The position numbers were made by a program, and so were the translations under genes. A model generated the notes under the pieces. The model saw only the letters and a program-made list of their open reading frames with translations, searched no databases and was not told the origin of the DNA. Positions 4,950-52,062 of a stretch of DNA of 64,000 nt are shown here, piece by piece. The stretch is from an uncultured Gammaproteobacteria bacterium (lineage in GTDB: Bacteria > Patescibacteriota > Patescibacteriia > UBA9934), in NCBI GenBank assembly GCA_964344415.1, contig CAYFMS010000002.1:128196-192195 (forward strand). Direction: 5' to 3'. The first letter of the stretch is position 1. Every line of letters starts with the position of its first letter.

Positions 4950-5085
4950 TCAAATCGGATCTCAATTTAGCGATATTCTAAAATTATAATCGCTCCAATC
5001 GCTAATATTAGTGAATTTATAATTCAATATTCCGCGGAGATCGGATCTCGGATGTGGATAAGTAAATCGGATCTCGGGAAGGGAA
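4950..5085 (+). repeat. short repeats of atcggatctc(gg) and a GATGTGGATAAGT box upstream of rnhB
   Basis: Four copies of cggatctc and a gagatcggatctc palindrome. The perfect DnaA-box complement tgtggataa lies at 5062-5070. Confidence 0.55.
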
Positions 5086-5103: not shown

Positions 5104-5703
5104 ATGACTGTTTCAACACCGACGCGAGCATTTGAAGCAAAAGTATTAGAGGAGGGTTATCGCTTTGTCGTTGGGGTTGATGAAGCGGGCGCAGGTGCGC
5201 TCGCCGGCCCCGTAGTGGCAGGTGCCGTCATCTTACATCCAACAGAGTCTGTCACGGGATTGCAAGATTCAAAAAAGCTCAGTGCAAAAAAGCGCGAGGA
5301 ATTATATTCGGCTATTTTAAAATATTCAGTGGCATGGGCTTTTGGTATGGCAACAGTCGAGGAAATTATGTTGCATGGAATCCGCCCAGCAAATTATCTC
5401 GCCATGCGCCGCGCTATAGAAAAAATTGAACAGGCAGAATATGCCCTCGTCGATGCATGGACAATTCCGTCACTTCACATACCTCAACTTGGAATCATAA
5501 GAGGCGACCAACAGGTCGAATCGATTGCAGCCGCTTCAATTATTGCAAAAGTAACACGCGATCGCATGATGATGGATTATCATGCACGCTACCCGATATA
5601 TGGTTTCGATAGCCATAAAGGGTATGGCACTCGCAAGCACCGTGAAGCTATTGAAAAGCATGGGCCATCACCGGTGCATCGAATGAATTTCACATTATAT
5701 TAA
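5104..5703 (+). CDS. rnhB: ribonuclease HII
   Basis: Motifs GVDEAGAGALAGPVV and DSKKLS. Confidence 0.85.
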   Translation: MTVSTPTRAFEAKVLEEGYRFVVGVDEAGAGALAGPVVAGAVILHPTESVTGLQDSKKLSAKKREELYSAILKYSVAWAFGMATVEEIMLHGIRPANYLAMRRAIEKIEQAEYALVDAWTIPSLHIPQLGIIRGDQQVESIAAASIIAKVTRDRMMMDYHARYPIYGFDSHKGYGTRKHREAIEKHGPSPVHRMNFTLY

Positions 5704-27246: not shown

Positions 27247-28071
27247 ATGAAAAAAATCATTATACCCCTTATACTCATTACTCTTGGTGCCGGTTCACTT
27301 TATATTTTGCGGCAAGGCGGAGCTGAAAAAACCGTGCCAGATATTCAGCTAACAACGGCAGGGCCGGTCTTAAAATCTGCGGAATCATATGGACGGACAT
27401 CGAGAATGGCATATGATGTTTTTTATAGAGATAGTTATGAAAATGCGCCCGTGGCATTTTTAATACATGGCGGGTCCAATGGATCTGGCGTAAAGGAAAC
27501 ACTCGAGCCGATGGTTGATATGTATACGGATCTAGGATTTGCTGCGGTACTTGTTGAATATAGGACGGGACGACAAAATGCGCTTGTCGATATTCCATGT
27601 GCCGTTTCGCATTTCAGTTTGCAAGCTGAAGAATTTGGTGTAAATCCTGAAGCCTCAATTATTCACGGTTTTTCATTTGGTGGGAATAATAGTTCGAATA
27701 TTGTTTTCACGGATAATTACGATTGGACATCATCCTGCAGTGTTGATCAGAATGATTCTGAGGTACTCGCATTTATTGGGCATAGTGCGAATAATCTTGG
27801 GCATCAAGGTCCGCGTGGAGCTTTCGATAAAATCAGTAAAAATGACCCACCAACACTTCTTCTTTTTGGCGCGGATGATCCAGACCTAAATCCTTCGGAG
27901 CCGCAATCATTCATTGATCGTTTGTATGAAAAGGGGATTGATGGGCAACTCGAAATCATTGATGGGATTGGACATGGTCCATCGGGACATCTCCAGAATG
28001 CAGAAATTACATCTATCATTCAGGAATTTTCAATGGATATACTAAATGAATATGCGAACATTATTGATTAA
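27247..28071 (+). CDS. alpha/beta hydrolase (esterase/lipase-like)
   Basis: Signal peptide, an HGGS oxyanion-hole motif, and the nucleophile elbow GFSFGG. Confidence 0.6.
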   Translation: MKKIIIPLILITLGAGSLYILRQGGAEKTVPDIQLTTAGPVLKSAESYGRTSRMAYDVFYRDSYENAPVAFLIHGGSNGSGVKETLEPMVDMYTDLGFAAVLVEYRTGRQNALVDIPCAVSHFSLQAEEFGVNPEASIIHGFSFGGNNSSNIVFTDNYDWTSSCSVDQNDSEVLAFIGHSANNLGHQGPRGAFDKISKNDPPTLLLFGADDPDLNPSEPQSFIDRLYEKGIDGQLEIIDGIGHGPSGHLQNAEITSIIQEFSMDILNEYANIID

Positions 28072-29371
28072 CATTTTATATGCGAGAGCGAAGAGATATG
28101 TCGAGCTCTGCAGACCTATTGTTATTGCGGTAACGGGATCTCATGGGAAAACAACGACGAAAAATGCCATTGCCGCAGCGGCGCATGCCTTATATCCAAG
28201 TAGAAGTATTCGGCAGGCAAAAAAAAGTTTCAATAATGAATTCGGTGTTCCGCTCTCTATTCTTGGTGAAGAGAGTCCGGGTAGGTCTATTTTTGGATGG
28301 CTCGGATTGCTATGGCGCTTATTTCGATTAAATGCGAAGGATTGCCCCGAGGTGCTGATTCTTGAGTATGGAGCTGACCGACCGGGTGAAATTGAGCATT
28401 GGTGCAAATTAGCTGCACCTGATATTGGAGTGATTACGGGGGTTTCAGCGGTGCATGCAGCGAATTATCCAGGTGGAATCAGCGATGTGATTCAGGAGAA
28501 ATCCACTCTTGCAAAGTATACAAAGCAGGTACTTGTTTTGAATGGCGACGATGCTGAGGTCGAGAAGATGAAATCTCATGCGGGTGAACATGTCAAAACA
28601 GTTTTTTATGGTGAGAAGAGTAATAATCTTTCATTTTCGATGAATATTGAAATGGCAGATGATGGAAGCTTTGATGCAGGTGAAACATTCATGGTCACAA
28701 GGGCAGAGCTTGGCGGAGGTATTGGGCAAGGTCATGAAATGCATCTTCGCAATTTGATCGGCTATGCGCCGGTGATGTCCTCGCTTGCTGCCATTCTTGC
28801 CGTGAATGCTCTTGCCGAGATTTCTGATAGACAAACAACATTGCAAGAAATCATTATATCGATTGAGGATCGATTCGGGCCAACACCGGGCCGACTCCGC
28901 CCAATCGCTGGAATCAAAAAATCCTTGATTATTGACGATTCATACAATGCAGCACCTGCAGCCATGGTGAATGGTTTGCATGTACTCCAGAGTATTCCCG
29001 TGCAGGATGAGGGGCGTCGAATTGCTGTACTCGGAAAAATGGCAGAATTAGGGGAGGAATCAGAGCAAGCTCATTATGATATTGGAAAAACAGTTGCGGA
29101 GATAGCAGATACATTCATTGCTGTTGGTGAAGAAATGAAAACAGCAAAAGGGTCCGCCATGCAATTTGGCATGAATACGGATTCGATTGAATGGTTTGCA
29201 ACATCTGAAGAGGCTGGGAGGTATTTAGACAATTATATTCAGCGGGGCGACATTATTTATGTGAAAGGGTCTCAGTCAGCCCGAATGGAAAAAGTGGTGA
29301 AAGATATTATGGCCGATCCACTGAAAGCTGTCGATCTTTTGGTTCGACAAGAGAAAATATGGCTCAATTAG
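28046..29371 (+). CDS. murF: Mur ligase (UDP-MurNAc-tripeptide--D-Ala-D-Ala ligase-like)
   Basis: AVTGSHGKTTTK and DDSYNAAP motifs. The start is ambiguous. Confidence 0.75.
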   Translation: MNMRTLLINILYARAKRYVELCRPIVIAVTGSHGKTTTKNAIAAAAHALYPSRSIRQAKKSFNNEFGVPLSILGEESPGRSIFGWLGLLWRLFRLNAKDCPEVLILEYGADRPGEIEHWCKLAAPDIGVITGVSAVHAANYPGGISDVIQEKSTLAKYTKQVLVLNGDDAEVEKMKSHAGEHVKTVFYGEKSNNLSFSMNIEMADDGSFDAGETFMVTRAELGGGIGQGHEMHLRNLIGYAPVMSSLAAILAVNALAEISDRQTTLQEIIISIEDRFGPTPGRLRPIAGIKKSLIIDDSYNAAPAAMVNGLHVLQSIPVQDEGRRIAVLGKMAELGEESEQAHYDIGKTVAEIADTFIAVGEEMKTAKGSAMQFGMNTDSIEWFATSEEAGRYLDNYIQRGDIIYVKGSQSARMEKVVKDIMADPLKAVDLLVRQEKIWLN

Positions 29372-29388
29372 CCGAGCATTGACCAAAC

Positions 29389-29445
29389 TTATCCACAGTC
29401 AATGCCCGACTTAGATGTGGATAAGTCGGGAAGGGGATTTGAGGT
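29389..29445 (+). promoter_or_regulatory. nested palindrome containing inverted DnaA-box sequences (cttatccaca / tgtggataag)
   Basis: Sequence acTTATCCACAgtcaatgCCCGACTTAgatgTGGATAAGTCGGGaaggg. It lies between murF and the GC-rich island. Confidence 0.5.
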
Positions 29446-29493
29446 TTTGATGTAGGGTAAAATGGCATCTACGCTACGTGTAAGGAGGATACG

Positions 29494-30291
29494 ATGCAAT
29501 ATAAGCCCGAAATGCTTCGTGCTGCAGAGGTCGTCCTTCGCGGCGGCTGTGCTGAGCTCTCATATGACTTCATGTCCACGGTTGAGTCGTTGTACCCAAT
29601 TTTCGAAACGAGAGACTCGCTGGACGATCATCTACATACACTGCTTCAAGTCGACAGAAGCAAGGACGGAAAGGATCCAGACGATGGATTCATCGTCCGT
29701 GACCAGAAAATGCGGAATCACATCGGAGAGCTTTACGATCCGAAAGACGTGTTCATGTACCGGCCTGATCTTTGGTCGCGTCACTACTGCGACACCCTGC
29801 CACCACGTGTGCTCGACAGATTGCGGTCGTATTGGAATCCGTTGCGTACGGTCCATGGGAAATGTGACAGGATTCACCGTGAATTCTGTCTAGCTCTTGG
29901 TGAGGTTTCTGGAGAGCGGGAGCTTTTCGACCAACTGTCTCACAGGGATCATTCCGAGTTTGCTGGTTCAAAGCTTCGACTGCTCCGTTACCGCGAGCCG
30001 CGAGAGACGGATCCAGCAAAGGTCGGAAAATTCCACACCGACCGATGCGCGATCACGTATCACTTGGCTCAAAATCATCCTGGACTCGTTGGTCCAGACA
30101 ATGAGCTGGTAGATGTTCGACCTGACAAGATCCGTATTTTCCCATCTGATCAGCTGCAAGTTGTGACGAGTGGAAGGATTCCGGCATGGCGTCATGGCGC
30201 AAGGTATGTCGAACCATACCCGCCCGGCGGGCGTCGCATGGCCGTGTACTTCGCTAGGTTCTTCAAGGGCCAGAACGACAGAGGTATCTGA
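29494..30291 (+). CDS. 2OG-Fe(II) oxygenase superfamily protein on a high-GC (~57%) island
   Basis: SD aaggagg upstream. Contains LRLLRYRE...FHTDRCAITYHLAQ...GLVG...WRHGARY, which is an IPNS-like HxD...H pattern. Overlapping ORFs here are GC artefacts. Confidence 0.55.
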   Translation: MQYKPEMLRAAEVVLRGGCAELSYDFMSTVESLYPIFETRDSLDDHLHTLLQVDRSKDGKDPDDGFIVRDQKMRNHIGELYDPKDVFMYRPDLWSRHYCDTLPPRVLDRLRSYWNPLRTVHGKCDRIHREFCLALGEVSGERELFDQLSHRDHSEFAGSKLRLLRYREPRETDPAKVGKFHTDRCAITYHLAQNHPGLVGPDNELVDVRPDKIRIFPSDQLQVVTSGRIPAWRHGARYVEPYPPGGRRMAVYFARFFKGQNDRGI

Positions 30292-30326
30292 CACCTTTCT
30301 TCAAGAGGGGTGTTTTTATTTTGCCC

Positions 30327-30356
30327 TTGCATCGCATAGAATGAGTGGTCTATAAT
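30327..30356 (+). promoter_or_regulatory. sigma70-like promoter TTGCAT-N18-TATAAT
   Basis: Consensus -10 hexamer about 50 nt upstream of the riboflavin kinase ATG. Confidence 0.45.
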
Positions 30357-30409
30357 GACCAATTAGTCATTGCAAAATAGATGAAACCATGTAAGATATT
30401 CGAAATTCT

Positions 30410-30775
30410 ATGTTACTTGCACAATACAAAGGAATTGTTGTCAAAGGAGAGGGTATTGCGGGTATTGAGTATTCAACACCCACAGCGAATCTCGACTTAG
30501 GCAAAATCGCACTTGAGCATGGTATTTATGCTGCGAGGACAGTTTATGACGGAGATACATACAATAGCGCTGTTTGCTATGGTGCTGATGGGAAGTATAA
30601 ATTTGAAGTTCATTTGCTGAATTTTGACAAAGATATTTACGGTGAGGAATTAGAAGTGACTGTTATTGAGAAGATCAGTGAAGTCATCCCATGGGTTTCG
30701 AAAGAGCGGATGCGTCAAAAAATTCTAGATGATTTGCATCAAATTAGAGAGTATTTCAAAAAAAGAGCCGTGTAG
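30410..30775 (+). CDS. riboflavin kinase (stand-alone RFK domain)
   Basis: Motifs GEGIAGIEYSTPTANL and E.H...F..DIYGEELEV. Confidence 0.65.
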   Translation: MLLAQYKGIVVKGEGIAGIEYSTPTANLDLGKIALEHGIYAARTVYDGDTYNSAVCYGADGKYKFEVHLLNFDKDIYGEELEVTVIEKISEVIPWVSKERMRQKILDDLHQIREYFKKRAV

Positions 30776-46179: not shown

Positions 46180-46180
46180 T

Positions 46181-46262
46181 TATCCCCACCAAGGTTAAAC
46201 CTTGATGTGGATAAGTGCCGTTCAAGGTTTAACCTTGCTGTGGATAAGTAAAGTCTGTTAAT
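46181..46262 (+). promoter_or_regulatory. cluster of three DnaA-box-like sites with two tandem palindrome-plus-box units
   Basis: ttatcccca, then caaggttaaaccttg-aTGTGGATAAGt, then caaggtttaaccttg-cTGTGGATAAGt. These are revcomp TTATCCACA. Lies directly upstream of alaS. Confidence 0.5.
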
Positions 46263-51711: not shown

Positions 51712-52062
51712 ATGCGACATAGAAATACGACAAAAACACTTGGCCGAAAGGTATCTGCTCGCAAGGCGCTTCTACGCGACCTCGCGACGAGTGTTATTGT
51801 CTATGAAAAAATTCAGACAACAGAGGGGAAGGCAAAGGCAGTAAAGCCTGTTGTTGAAAAGCTCATCACGACAGCTAAAAAGGGAGATTTGGCGGCTCGA
51901 CGAAAGTTGATCGCTTTCTTCACGACAAAGCAGCCGGTTGATAAGCTCATGGATGTTATTGGACCTCGTTATAAGAAACGCGAGGGAGGCTACACGCGTA
52001 TCCGCAAAGTTGGTTTCCGTCAGGGTGATGGAGCGCGAACGGTTGAATTAGAACTTGTATAG
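51712..52062 (+). CDS. rplQ: 50S ribosomal protein L17
   Basis: MRHRNTTKTLGRKVSARKALLRDL... Confidence 0.9.
   Translation: MRHRNTTKTLGRKVSARKALLRDLATSVIVYEKIQTTEGKAKAVKPVVEKLITTAKKGDLAARRKLIAFFTTKQPVDKLMDVIGPRYKKREGGYTRIRKVGFRQGDGARTVELELV

Follow-up and report, generated by a model that had tools for sequence, protein, structure and literature searches.

Between murF and ribK in the genome of an uncultured Patescibacteria-type bacterium lies a GC-rich island with one oxygenase gene, which raises the question of whether its composition marks a recent arrival or a property of the gene itself. The island sits in a 64,000-nt stretch of DNA, referred to here as the window, and an earlier note made from the letters alone had read it as foreign DNA carrying a probably horizontally acquired enzyme. 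The gene has not come in recently from a high-GC phylum; its sequence and setting fit best with an accessory gene that is old, belongs to the clade and has a putatively DnaA-controlled promoter. The explanation that best accounts for the locus as a whole, and which is regarded as probably correct, combines a functional dioxygenase, an accessory gene of the clade, a GC excess belonging to the family and control by DnaA. New here are the GC excess, which recurs across the family and is confined to coding sequence, and the recognition of two perfect DnaA boxes in the palindrome upstream of the gene. The features of the locus are as follows.

28046–29371, + strand: murF (UDP-MurNAc-tripeptide--D-Ala-D-Ala ligase), left flank of the insert; Pfam Mur_ligase_M and Mur_ligase_C, TIGR01143 E 6.6e-65
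29387–29397, + strand: distal DnaA box, extended 11-mer ACTTATCCACA; its 9-mer starts 105 nt before the ATG
29405–29430, + strand: nested 9-bp hairpin CCCGACTTA/TAAGTCGGG, overlapping the proximal DnaA box
29416–29426, − strand: proximal DnaA box, TGTGGATAAGT on the + strand; start 78 nt before the ATG
29427–29435, + strand: CGGGAAGGG motif, immediately 3' of the proximal DnaA box
29458–29463, + strand: putative −10-like hexamer TAAAAT, 31–36 nt before the ATG, found by reading
29482–29488, + strand: Shine-Dalgarno sequence AAGGAGG, 5 nt before the oxygenase ATG
29494–30291, + strand: 2OG/Fe(II) dioxygenase, 265 aa, from ORF, Pfam, homolog alignment and structure model
30034–30036, 30040–30042 and 30193–30195, + strand: codons of the predicted Fe ligands H181, D183 and H234
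30232–30234, + strand: codon of R247, which together with Y166 is predicted to bind 2OG
30290–30324, + strand: intrinsic-terminator-like hairpin and T tract, 11 pairs including G-T, overlapping the oxygenase stop codon
30327–30356, + strand: promoter-like TTGCAT-N18-TATAAT, read directly, with a putative function for ribK
30410–30775, + strand: monofunctional riboflavin kinase (ribK), right flank of the insert; Pfam Flavokinase E 2.9e-20

Two DnaA boxes, a promoter, a Shine-Dalgarno sequence, a coding sequence and a terminator would make the oxygenase gene a self-contained unit; it occupies the ~1.04 kb between murF and ribK. The island and both of its junctions are base-for-base identical in two further independent assemblies (L002, L003), which excludes an assembly chimera. 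The 265-aa ORF and its ribosome-binding site are present as first described, and the position of the latter favours the 265-aa start over the public 259-aa call. That this is the one credible gene in the island is borne out by Pfam, profile and model matches; as reported before, the island is overlapped on both strands by six other ORFs of 60 aa or longer, and by eight when the threshold is lowered to 50 aa. An overlapping antisense gene was considered and set aside, the antisense ORFs being short and expected in GC-rich DNA.

Downstream, a scan recovers the terminator hairpin (30290–30314) with its T tract. An integron cassette with attC was likewise discarded as a reading, since the hairpin and its T tract make up a terminator of the usual kind and a cassette array is absent. 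The ribK promoter sequence is also found by direct reading, with TTGCAT at 30327–30332 and TATAAT at 30351–30356; the promoter scan omits it because the −35 matches at three of six positions. Since the insert has cost murF and ribK their adjacency, a fresh promoter for ribK is a reasonable inference, and TTGCAT-N18-TATAAT may well drive this gene.

The ORF encodes an Fe(II)/2OG oxygenase of the IPNS/ANS/T7H/EFE-type structural clade, within a subfamily of ~250–300 aa that has no characterised member. Both motifs first noticed in it, FHTDRCAITYHLAQ and WRHGARY, are present. In a Pfam scan at the gathering threshold, residues 163–252 match PF03171 with 29.6 bits (cut-off 23); 27 of 30 aligned homologs also match this family. 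PF14226 (DIOX_N) gives no match at E<=1 in the Pfam scan; the N-terminal region does align with 3OOX and 3ON7, both in structure and by profile. The family profile matches these two PDB entries over their full length (E 2e-17 and E 4e-16, respectively), while a phmmer search of PDB with the single sequence yields a chance match only (E 1.8) and NCBIfam holds no family for the oxygenase. AlphaFold run from the single sequence reaches a pLDDT of 33.8, and the alignment-based model (pLDDT 90.1, pTM 0.90) was used instead. This model has the double-stranded beta-helix fold and is distinctly more similar in structure to the IPNS/DAOCS/ANS/T7H-type clade than to the other clades of 2OG oxygenases. 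The label IPNS-like stands only for fold and clade; the protein is not IPNS proper, to which it is 11% identical.

The conservation of the HxD...H...R residues, proposed earlier as a check, was confirmed: all 30 sequences share D82, K84, R162, Y166, H181, D183, H234, R247 and F253, and these include both residues of the 2OG-binding Arg/Tyr pair, R247 and Y166. Fe(II) is predicted to be held by H181, D183 and H234 and 2OG by R247 and Y166; as in other enzymes of the clade, activation of O2 would then lead to a ferryl species, with a small molecule as the substrate to be oxidised. As in the earlier note, no particular substrate is assigned. The serine of the RxS motif is replaced by Met249 in the subclade formed by the window protein and the homologs P0002, P0004 and P0005, which also have an H-G/A-A motif in common. 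This substitution, and the ease with which long chance ORFs arise in GC-rich DNA, could suggest a decaying, non-functional remnant or a spurious ORF. Such a reading is scarcely credible given that the catalytic and family-invariant residues are all intact, that the full-length model is confident and that a good Shine-Dalgarno sequence and a terminator are present. The enzyme is probably functional, and its sequence predicts catalytic activity.

The family is defined by a full HMMER scan of 1.84 billion representative proteins, which returned 93 homologs at E<=1e-3 and no match above 38% identity over the matched stretches. It is reachable only by such a scan: a word-index protein search found the query itself only, and one with a 30-sequence profile found five proteins only. 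The closest hits had been expected in Actinobacteria or Proteobacteria. This expectation failed, as the best non-self match (36% identical) comes from the same clade. The best matches, P0002 and P0004, are encoded directly upstream of ribK/ATP-grasp in loci L014 and L016, whose hosts are related small-genome bacteria from a sister lineage within the clade, and a neighbour-joining tree groups the window protein with P0002, P0004 and P0005. Elsewhere, family members sit in unrelated gene neighbourhoods, and the L025 homolog lies directly after thyA-dcd-MTHFS-folA. A literature search found nothing on 2OG oxygenases in CPR bearing on the oxygenase family, and no publication for PRJEB17505.

The composition of the island is deviant, if less so than first stated. 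At 29460–30300 the GC content is 52.7% instead of ~57%; the stretch is nonetheless GC-rich, and the second most GC-rich in the window, whose mean is 42.7% with a standard deviation of 2.8 points (800-nt windows). The window's first GC island (134–1019) is flanked by a 29-nt direct repeat. The oxygenase ORF itself has 53.0% GC, with 42.3% for comparison, and a GC3 of 0.553 versus a median of 0.371. Codon choice supplies 6.7 of the 10.9 excess GC points. These values, together with the absence of the gene from L004, L026 and L030 and the unrelated neighbourhoods of the family, are what a recent transfer from a high-GC donor (Actinobacteria or Proteobacteria), its excess being an unameliorated relic, would produce. 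However, the excess is limited to the coding sequence, ending at the start and stop codons, and the four-fold sites are already close to the host (0.47 versus 0.42). Moreover, the same kind of GC offset recurs in family homologs of nine other hosts, and in a host of 66% GC the homolog's offset is reversed. Neither a homolog above 38% identity among the 1.84 billion representatives nor repeats, an integrase or a tRNA speak for an import, the promoter contains host-specific motifs, and the best matches come from the same clade and the same slot. Recent transfer from such a donor is therefore considered highly improbable, and high GC as a signature of foreign DNA does not hold here: the excess is family-wide and limited to coding sequence, and so is no mark of recent import.

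The GC excess instead belongs to the family's coding sequences, whichever host carries them. It is stronger in the genes for P0002 and P0004 than in the window gene, and the L014 and L016 oxygenases have a GC3 of 0.75–0.77 despite saturated divergence, with flanks that are only 55–78% identical. Codon-level selection left no trace in the form of a difference between conserved and variable columns (GC3 0.68 and 0.65, respectively). A more elaborate joint reading, in which coding sequences are held at ~55–65% GC irrespective of host, for example by GC-biased gene conversion at an accessory locus prone to recombination, while the gene belongs throughout the family to the DnaA regulon and perhaps catalyses a T7H-like reaction, is thought unlikely in its entirety.

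How the gene came to its present place can be approached from its relatives. In three syntenic loci (L004, L026, L030), which share the order PBP-murF-ribK-ATPgrasp-Dus-x-VKOR-bCASP, murF is followed directly by ribK and the oxygenase is absent. This adjacency identifies the gene as a lineage-specific 1-kb insert; a metagenome scan with MurF added one distant locus only. Of the features of genomic islands, deviant composition and absence from relatives are thus found here, while a donor, flanking repeats, a tRNA and mobility genes are not: the flanks of the island have no direct repeats (alignment score 16 versus a shuffle mean of 15.5), no tRNA was found near it, and no integrase or mobility gene lies beside it. 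A tblastn search of plasmids and phages gave no match for the oxygenase, nor did PADLOC or PHROGs, so that nothing points to a role in mobile elements or in defence. Horizontal acquisition, as proposed before, is only partly upheld, by the three relatives that lack the gene but not by any donor, repeats or mobility genes.

The host tree consists of three cherries, (WIN,L004), (L026,L030) and (L014,L016), with WIN denoting the window, joined at a centre without branching order. It does not discriminate between two gains and one gain with two losses. Under strict vertical inheritance, the gene would have stood beside ribK in the clade ancestor, and the L004 and L026/L030 lineages would each have lost it separately. 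Its high GC3 would then be kept up actively, either through selection acting on the coding sequence or, at a locus prone to recombination, through GC-biased gene conversion. In line with this, the oxygenase occupies the same slot relative to ribK/ATP-grasp in the window, L014 and L016, its identities (32%, 30% and 45%) track the host tree and are comparable to those of the fast-evolving neighbours RibK (31%) and VKOR (31–38%), derived motifs are common to the four proteins of the subclade, and GC3 stands at ~0.75 in both L014 and L016 in spite of their diverged flanks. P0002 and P0004 in the equivalent slot thus bear out in part what the earlier note said would count against its reading, homologs inherited across the lineage with similar GC. 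Strict descent nevertheless requires one gain and two losses against two gains, and the 2-nt gap or overlap between murF and ribK in L026 and L030 resembles a long-standing operon junction. Furthermore, the left flank differs, with murF here versus an O-methyltransferase in L014 and L016, and the maintenance of GC has no demonstrated mechanism, GC3 not being raised at conserved columns. Strict vertical inheritance is considered less likely than not. In the preferred reading, the oxygenase gene would be an accessory gene of this Patescibacteria-type clade that was either gained laterally within the clade gene pool or kept since the common ancestor of the clade, with losses in other lineages; whether gain or loss took place, and when, is inferred.

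The upstream palindrome was first taken as a boundary of the island, and its nested pairing is confirmed: the distal ACTTATCCACA (29387–29397) pairs with TGTGGATAAGT (29416–29426) at 11 of 11 positions, and within it the 9-mer at 29405–29413 pairs with that at 29422–29430. It is more than a boundary: two perfect DnaA boxes in inverted orientation, at −105 and −78, form a putative promoter element that is conserved in the family. The perfect box TTATCCACA occurs six times in the window (0.72 expected; none of 100 shuffles reached six), and the 11-mer has five copies there, all intergenic (0.94 expected). Two further genes of this genome, rnhB and alaS, have the same 11-mer ahead of them, and the only other window copy of CGGGAAGGG, at 5075–5083, follows the DnaA box ahead of rnhB.

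Across the family, the perfect box lies at −78 (window), −79 (L017), −81 (L019/L020) and −77 (L021/L022), although these relatives are only 25–29% identical to the window protein; L023 has a box with two mismatches at −82. At L014, L016, L015, L018 and L025, which include the two closest homologs, there is no box within one mismatch. Finding at least four of ten independent loci with a perfect box in an 80-nt upstream window has a chance probability of ~6e-8, the ten loci having been picked from the family tree and not sampled at random. The hexamer TAAAAT at 29458–29463 is not listed by the consensus promoter scan, and the window has no good −35 at the spacing found in L017 and L021; in other family members a −10-like hexamer starts 37–45 nt before the ATG.

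Alternatively, the palindrome could be just a terminator or attenuator hairpin of the murF RNA, or resemble a DnaA site by chance, and play no part in transcribing the oxygenase gene. It lies 16–60 nt after the murF stop codon and can form a 9-bp hairpin, and its three overlapping inverted repeats could give alternative structures. The RNA fold predicted for the murF-oxygenase spacer does centre on the nested hairpin, but this fold is weak (z = −2.2), no T tract follows the hairpin and Rfam has no match for the spacer or the island at E<=1. What makes this explanation rather improbable is that the 9-mer is equidistant from the ATG in three unrelated loci with different upstream genes and that the identical 11-mer stands ahead of rnhB and alaS. 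Because a perfect box recurs ~78 nt before the start codon in four family members, control by DnaA is proposed. DnaA would be expected to bind the upstream boxes, oxygenase transcription most likely lies under its control, and expression would thereby be tied to replication status.

The enzyme class is well known, so that the gene taken alone would be a routine hypothetical 2OG oxygenase. Enzymes dependent on O2 and 2OG are, on the other hand, unexpected in metabolically minimal Patescibacteria-type genomes, and a DnaA box at a fixed distance in distant homologs offers a testable lead to a replication-linked function as well as to the DnaA regulon of uncultured bacteria. If the more elaborate joint reading is true, a family in Patescibacteria-type and other uncultured bacteria would couple an O2/2OG reaction to replication initiation in organisms relying on scavenged precursors, and in this reaction a pyrimidine base or nucleoside might be oxidised in the manner of T7H. 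The case also warns against taking GC-rich islands as recent horizontal transfer: a GC offset that is limited to coding sequence, family-wide and persistent between diverged orthologs is not predicted by standard amelioration models.

Among known systems, the best full-length profile matches are the structural-genomics 2OG-Fe(II) oxygenases 3ON7 (SO_2589, Shewanella oneidensis) and 3OOX (CC_0200, Caulobacter crescentus). Both are similarly short (270–310 aa) and have the YD.K, LRLL.Y, HxD...H and R.S motifs in common with the window enzyme, although they are only 18–20% identical to it and the window subclade differs in having R-x-M for R-x-S as well as HxDR. They are listed among enzymes of undefined function (PMC10467617) and thus give no substrate clue for the window enzyme. 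The IPNS/DAOCS/ANS/ACCO “iron/ascorbate oxidoreductase” clade shares the PF03171 core. IPNS itself is not among the top sequence matches and does not use 2OG, whereas the window protein retains the Arg/Tyr 2OG site. The gene resembles genomic islands and single-gene islets in its deviant composition, its absence from relatives and its own promoter and terminator. It differs from them in the lack of direct repeats, a tRNA target and mobility genes, and in a deviation that is GC-rich, confined to the coding sequence and recurrent in the homologs of other hosts.

DnaA-regulated promoters include those of dnaA and nrdAB in E. coli and of sda and others in B. subtilis. The oxygenase promoter resembles these in its perfect boxes just upstream of the core promoter, two of them inverted, and in the presence of rnhB among the other boxed genes of the genome. 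To our knowledge, no 2OG oxygenase is a member of a DnaA regulon, and a literature search returned nothing tying the DnaA regulon to a dioxygenase. T7H (PDB 5C3P) and PDN2'H (9HDL) are related 2OG oxygenases of nucleobases and nucleosides, that is, of small-molecule substrates. T7H is longer (~330 aa) and 15% identical to the window protein, and family loci other than L025 have no nucleotide-related context; at L025, however, the position of the homolog behind thyA-dcd-MTHFS-folA recalls T7H, and control through DnaA boxes would fit a nucleotide- or replication-linked gene of this kind.

The GC-rich region at 29460-30300 (the island) is real and reproducible, but its GC content is 52.7% (53.0% for the oxygenase ORF) and not the ~57% first claimed, compared with a window mean of 42.7% and a standard deviation of 2.8 points in 800-nt windows; GC is higher only in the window's first kilobase. 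With a GC3 of 0.553 vs. a median of 0.37 (z 2.8), the oxygenase ranks third among 68 plausible ORFs, behind two overlapping ORFs of the first GC island. Its overlap with six alternative ORFs (60 aa or longer) on both strands was confirmed, and the Shine-Dalgarno sequence, two sequence motifs, nested inverted repeats, terminator-like hairpin and promoter-like TTGCAT-N18-TATAAT sequence described in the earlier note were all found. The window lies within a 768,188-bp contig (metagenome ERZ930061), and an assembly chimera is excluded because the island and both junctions were recovered with 0 mismatches in two independent assemblies (Logan ERR2281800 and ERR2281801). The public gene call (P0001, 259 aa) starts at Met7 (29512 vs. 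29494); the 265-aa start is favored by the Shine-Dalgarno sequence AAGGAGG, placed 5 nt ahead of the ATG at 29494, and by the way the N terminus aligns with homologs.

Genes at the oxygenase locus (window positions)
28046-29371, murF, left flank of the oxygenase
29494-30291 (+), 2OG/Fe(II) oxygenase ORF, 265 aa
30410-30775, monofunctional riboflavin kinase (ribK), right flank of the oxygenase

Beyond these flanks lie a convergent ATP-grasp ligase gene, dusB, a small ORF, VKOR and a beta-CASP nuclease gene. Named relatives of the ATP-grasp protein belong to Candidatus Uhrbacteria, Kaiserbacteria, Paceibacterota and "Patescibacteria group" and those of MurF to Doudnabacteria and Saccharibacteria, which points to a Patescibacteria/CPR-type host. 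The block PBP-murF-ribK-ATPgrasp-Dus-x-VKOR-bCASP occurs without the oxygenase in three relatives, L004 (MurF 59% and ATP-grasp 70% identical to the window), L026 and L030 (ATP-grasp about 59% in both). Since murF and ribK are separated by 2 nt in L026 and 18–70 nt in L004 and overlap in L030, the window carries about 1.04 kb of extra DNA (29372-30409), consisting of 122 nt of 5' non-coding sequence, the oxygenase ORF and 118 nt of 3' non-coding sequence. With its adjacency to murF broken, ribK could reasonably be expected to have gained a promoter of its own. A second lineage-specific gene of the murF operon, encoding an alpha/beta-hydrolase (BD-FAE/Peptidase_S9, 274 aa) of host-like GC (42%), lies at 27247-28071 between the PBP gene and murF, whose start it overlaps by 26 nt; it is missing from the three relatives, where the PBP gene abuts murF.

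The earlier note had expected a foreign island from a high-GC phylum, with closest relatives in Actinobacteria or Proteobacteria. This was not borne out: the best homologs, P0002 (locus L014) and P0004 (L016), belong to the same clade, and GC-richness is seen across the family. The P0002 gene lies directly upstream of ribK and the P0004 gene directly upstream of the ATP-grasp gene; to their right follows the same ATPgrasp-Dus-x-VKOR-bCASP block as in the window, and to their left an O-methyltransferase gene takes the place of murF. This gene of the cation-dependent O-methyltransferase type (Methyltransf_3/24; L014 626-1219, L016 1898-2482, same strand as the oxygenase) is 55% identical between the two loci, has host-like GC and lacks a homolog in the window; the L016 copy is set apart from the oxygenase gene by a terminator hairpin. 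In a host tree from a four-protein concatenate, three cherries, window with L004, L026 with L030 and L014 with L016, were each recovered in 200/200 bootstraps. Oxygenase identities track this tree (window-L014 32%, window-L016 30%, L014-L016 45%) and are similar to those of fast-evolving neighbors (RibK 31%, VKOR 31–38%). Furthermore, the window protein groups with P0002, P0004 and P0005 in a neighbor-joining tree of 95 family members, and these four have derived features in common, such as R-x-M replacing R-x-S. With six genomes, a single ancestral gene that was lost twice is indistinguishable from two separate gains at this border; both scenarios place the origin in the gene pool of the clade itself or in an unsampled relative. 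The oxygenase gene is probably an old accessory gene of the clade.

No direct repeats flank the island, no tRNA lies near it, and it has no match in plasmid, phage, defence or PHROG libraries. Unlike it, the first GC island looks in its sequence like a site-specific insertion with target duplication. Its 196-aa ORF (367-957; 58.7% GC, GC3 0.645; no Pfam family) lies between the two copies of a 29-nt direct repeat, AAA(C/T)GAAAG(A)AAACGGCAGAAGTAAAAAA, at 104-132 and 1020-1047, a duplication of the upstream gene's 3' end together with its stop codon (score 46 vs. a shuffle mean of 15.7, reached by 0/500 shuffles), and tRNA-Tyr and tRNA-Thr adjoin it.

The GC excess is a trait of the oxygenase family.

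GC3 of oxygenase genes and their neighbors (locus; oxygenase; neighbors)
Window; 0.55; 0.37
L014; 0.77; 0.38
L016; 0.75; 0.45
L015; 0.64; about 0.48
L017; 0.50; rest of contig, 43% GC (not codon-based)
L018; 0.73; about 0.49
L019/L020; 0.78; 0.48
L021; 0.70; 0.52-0.68
L023; 0.64; about 0.53
L025 (66% GC host); 0.81, below neighbors; about 0.92 (0.87-0.95)

The excess ends at the start and stop codons of the oxygenase, and the 10.9 excess GC points of the window gene comprise 6.7 from codon choice and 4.2 from amino-acid composition. Its four-fold sites are host-like (GC3 0.47 vs. 0.42), with two- and three-fold sites strongly raised (0.61 vs. 0.26; for example, TTC 11/12 and GAC 16/25); a similar asymmetry between degeneracy classes is seen in the ORF at 51712-52062 (0.55 vs. 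0.33). Because the methyltransferase-oxygenase arrangement is common to L014 and L016, their common ancestor probably had the oxygenase gene. Both copies stand at a GC3 around 0.75 with conserved flanks 55–78% identical, a distance over which foreign DNA persisting as a passive relic would be expected to ameliorate. Simple selection for translational accuracy is not supported as the cause, since GC3 is not higher at conserved columns (0.68 vs. 0.65 at variable ones); GC-biased gene conversion, selection on the coding sequence and repeated replacement are candidates. Several other genes of these contigs are GC-rich compared with their neighbors (58–63% GC, GC3 0.57–0.85; L014 144-614 (-); L018 104-1399, 2393-2797 and 11434-12531; L015 1117-5704), so mosaic GC may characterize these genomes in general rather than the oxygenase in particular.

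The upstream palindrome, previously taken as the island boundary, is present, but reads as a conserved DnaA-box promoter element found at the same distance in distant loci. The perfect box TTATCCACA occurs six times in the window vs. 0.72 expected, and five copies of the extended 11-mer ACTTATCCACA, all intergenic, lie before rnhB (one), the oxygenase (two) and alaS (two). The rnhB copy (5053-5063) precedes the RNase HII gene (5104-5703) by about 50 nt; the two copies upstream of alaS (46274) are accompanied by a one-mismatch copy at 46180 (46180-46249) and interleaved with two copies of the palindrome CAAGGTT(T)AAACCTTG, and these rnhB and alaS boxes may mark promoters under DnaA regulation or form a DnaA-box cluster. 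As the sequence CGGGAAGGG after the proximal oxygenase box has its sole other window copy after the rnhB box, and ACTTATCCACA recurs at rnhB and alaS, the oxygenase promoter region looks native to this genome. In front of distant family members whose neighborhoods are unrelated, TTATCCACA likewise precedes the start codon by a fixed distance.

DnaA boxes upstream of oxygenase genes (position relative to the start codon)
Window: perfect box at -78, second at -105
L017 (P0006): perfect box at -79
L019/L020 (P0008): perfect box at -81
L021/L022 (P0011): perfect box at -77
L023 (P0013): two-mismatch copy at -82

A -35-like hexamer follows the box after 6–7 nt in L017 (TTGCCG), L021 (TTGCCA) and L023 (TTGATA) and after about 15 nt in L019 (TTGACC), and a -10-like hexamer starts 36–45 nt before the ATG in all five boxed loci. 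The chance of at least 4 of 10 loci having a perfect box anywhere in an 80-nt upstream stretch is about 6e-8, calculated from the box density of all fetched DNA, these boxes included; five loci (L014, L016, L015, L018 and L025) have no box within one mismatch. The enrichment and fixed position of the box suggest that the oxygenase promoter is probably under DnaA control. The spacer RNA folds weakly better than shuffles (z -2.2) and has no Rfam match. A perfect box also lies 75 nt before the ATP-grasp gene start, inside the 3' end of dusB, in the oxygenase-free L026 (6926-6934) and in L027–L029. Both the DnaA link and the persistence of the GC offset merit follow-up.

Homolog neighborhoods are inconsistent (pyruvate kinase, PGI, malic enzyme, RNase J, an LPG-synthase-like gene, thyA-dcd-MTHFS-folA), which suggests that the oxygenase probably functions on its own, with a common small molecule as substrate. 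Nucleobase or nucleoside chemistry is a rather unlikely assignment, for which there are three weak hints: structural proximity to T7H and pyrimidine nucleoside hydroxylase, the gene context in L025, and the predicted DnaA-box control in common with rnhB. In L025 (3409-6786), a 66% GC contig of small-genome type, the homolog P0075 follows thyA, dcd, the 5-FTHF cyclo-ligase gene and folA on the same strand, with tmk and glyA just upstream, the only nucleotide-linked context among the homolog loci seen.

The protein passes the threshold of Pfam PF03171 (2OG-FeII_Oxy; 29.6 bits, cut-off 23). A word-indexed search of 5.8 billion proteins matched only the protein itself, whereas 93 relatives at E<=1e-3 were detected when 1.84 billion cluster representatives were scanned in full with HMMER. 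Apart from the protein itself, the top match had 36% identity (E 1.8e-15), and none of the matches listed above the E 1e-6 range exceeded 38% over the matched stretch. An alignment of 30 relatives shows no variation at D82, K84, R162, Y166, H181, D183, H234, R247 and F253; these residues comprise the HxD...H iron triad, an Arg/Tyr pair and family-specific positions, and the proposed HxD...H...R motif is thereby conserved. In this oxygenase clade, the Arg/Tyr pair binds the C5 carboxylate of 2OG. The alignment-based AlphaFold model is confident (pLDDT 90.1, pTM 0.90; single-sequence model poor, pLDDT 33.8). Full-length matches of the family profile in the PDB are 3OOX (E 2e-17) and 3ON7 (E 4e-16), both classed among enzymes of undefined function (PMC10467617), followed by thymine dioxygenase, AdaV, GA2ox, DAOCS, EFE, ANS and ACCO. 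Sequence and structure therefore uphold the label "IPNS-like" for fold and clade, and at that level only; the enzyme call was right, and the oxygenase is a new member of an already known kind of enzyme.
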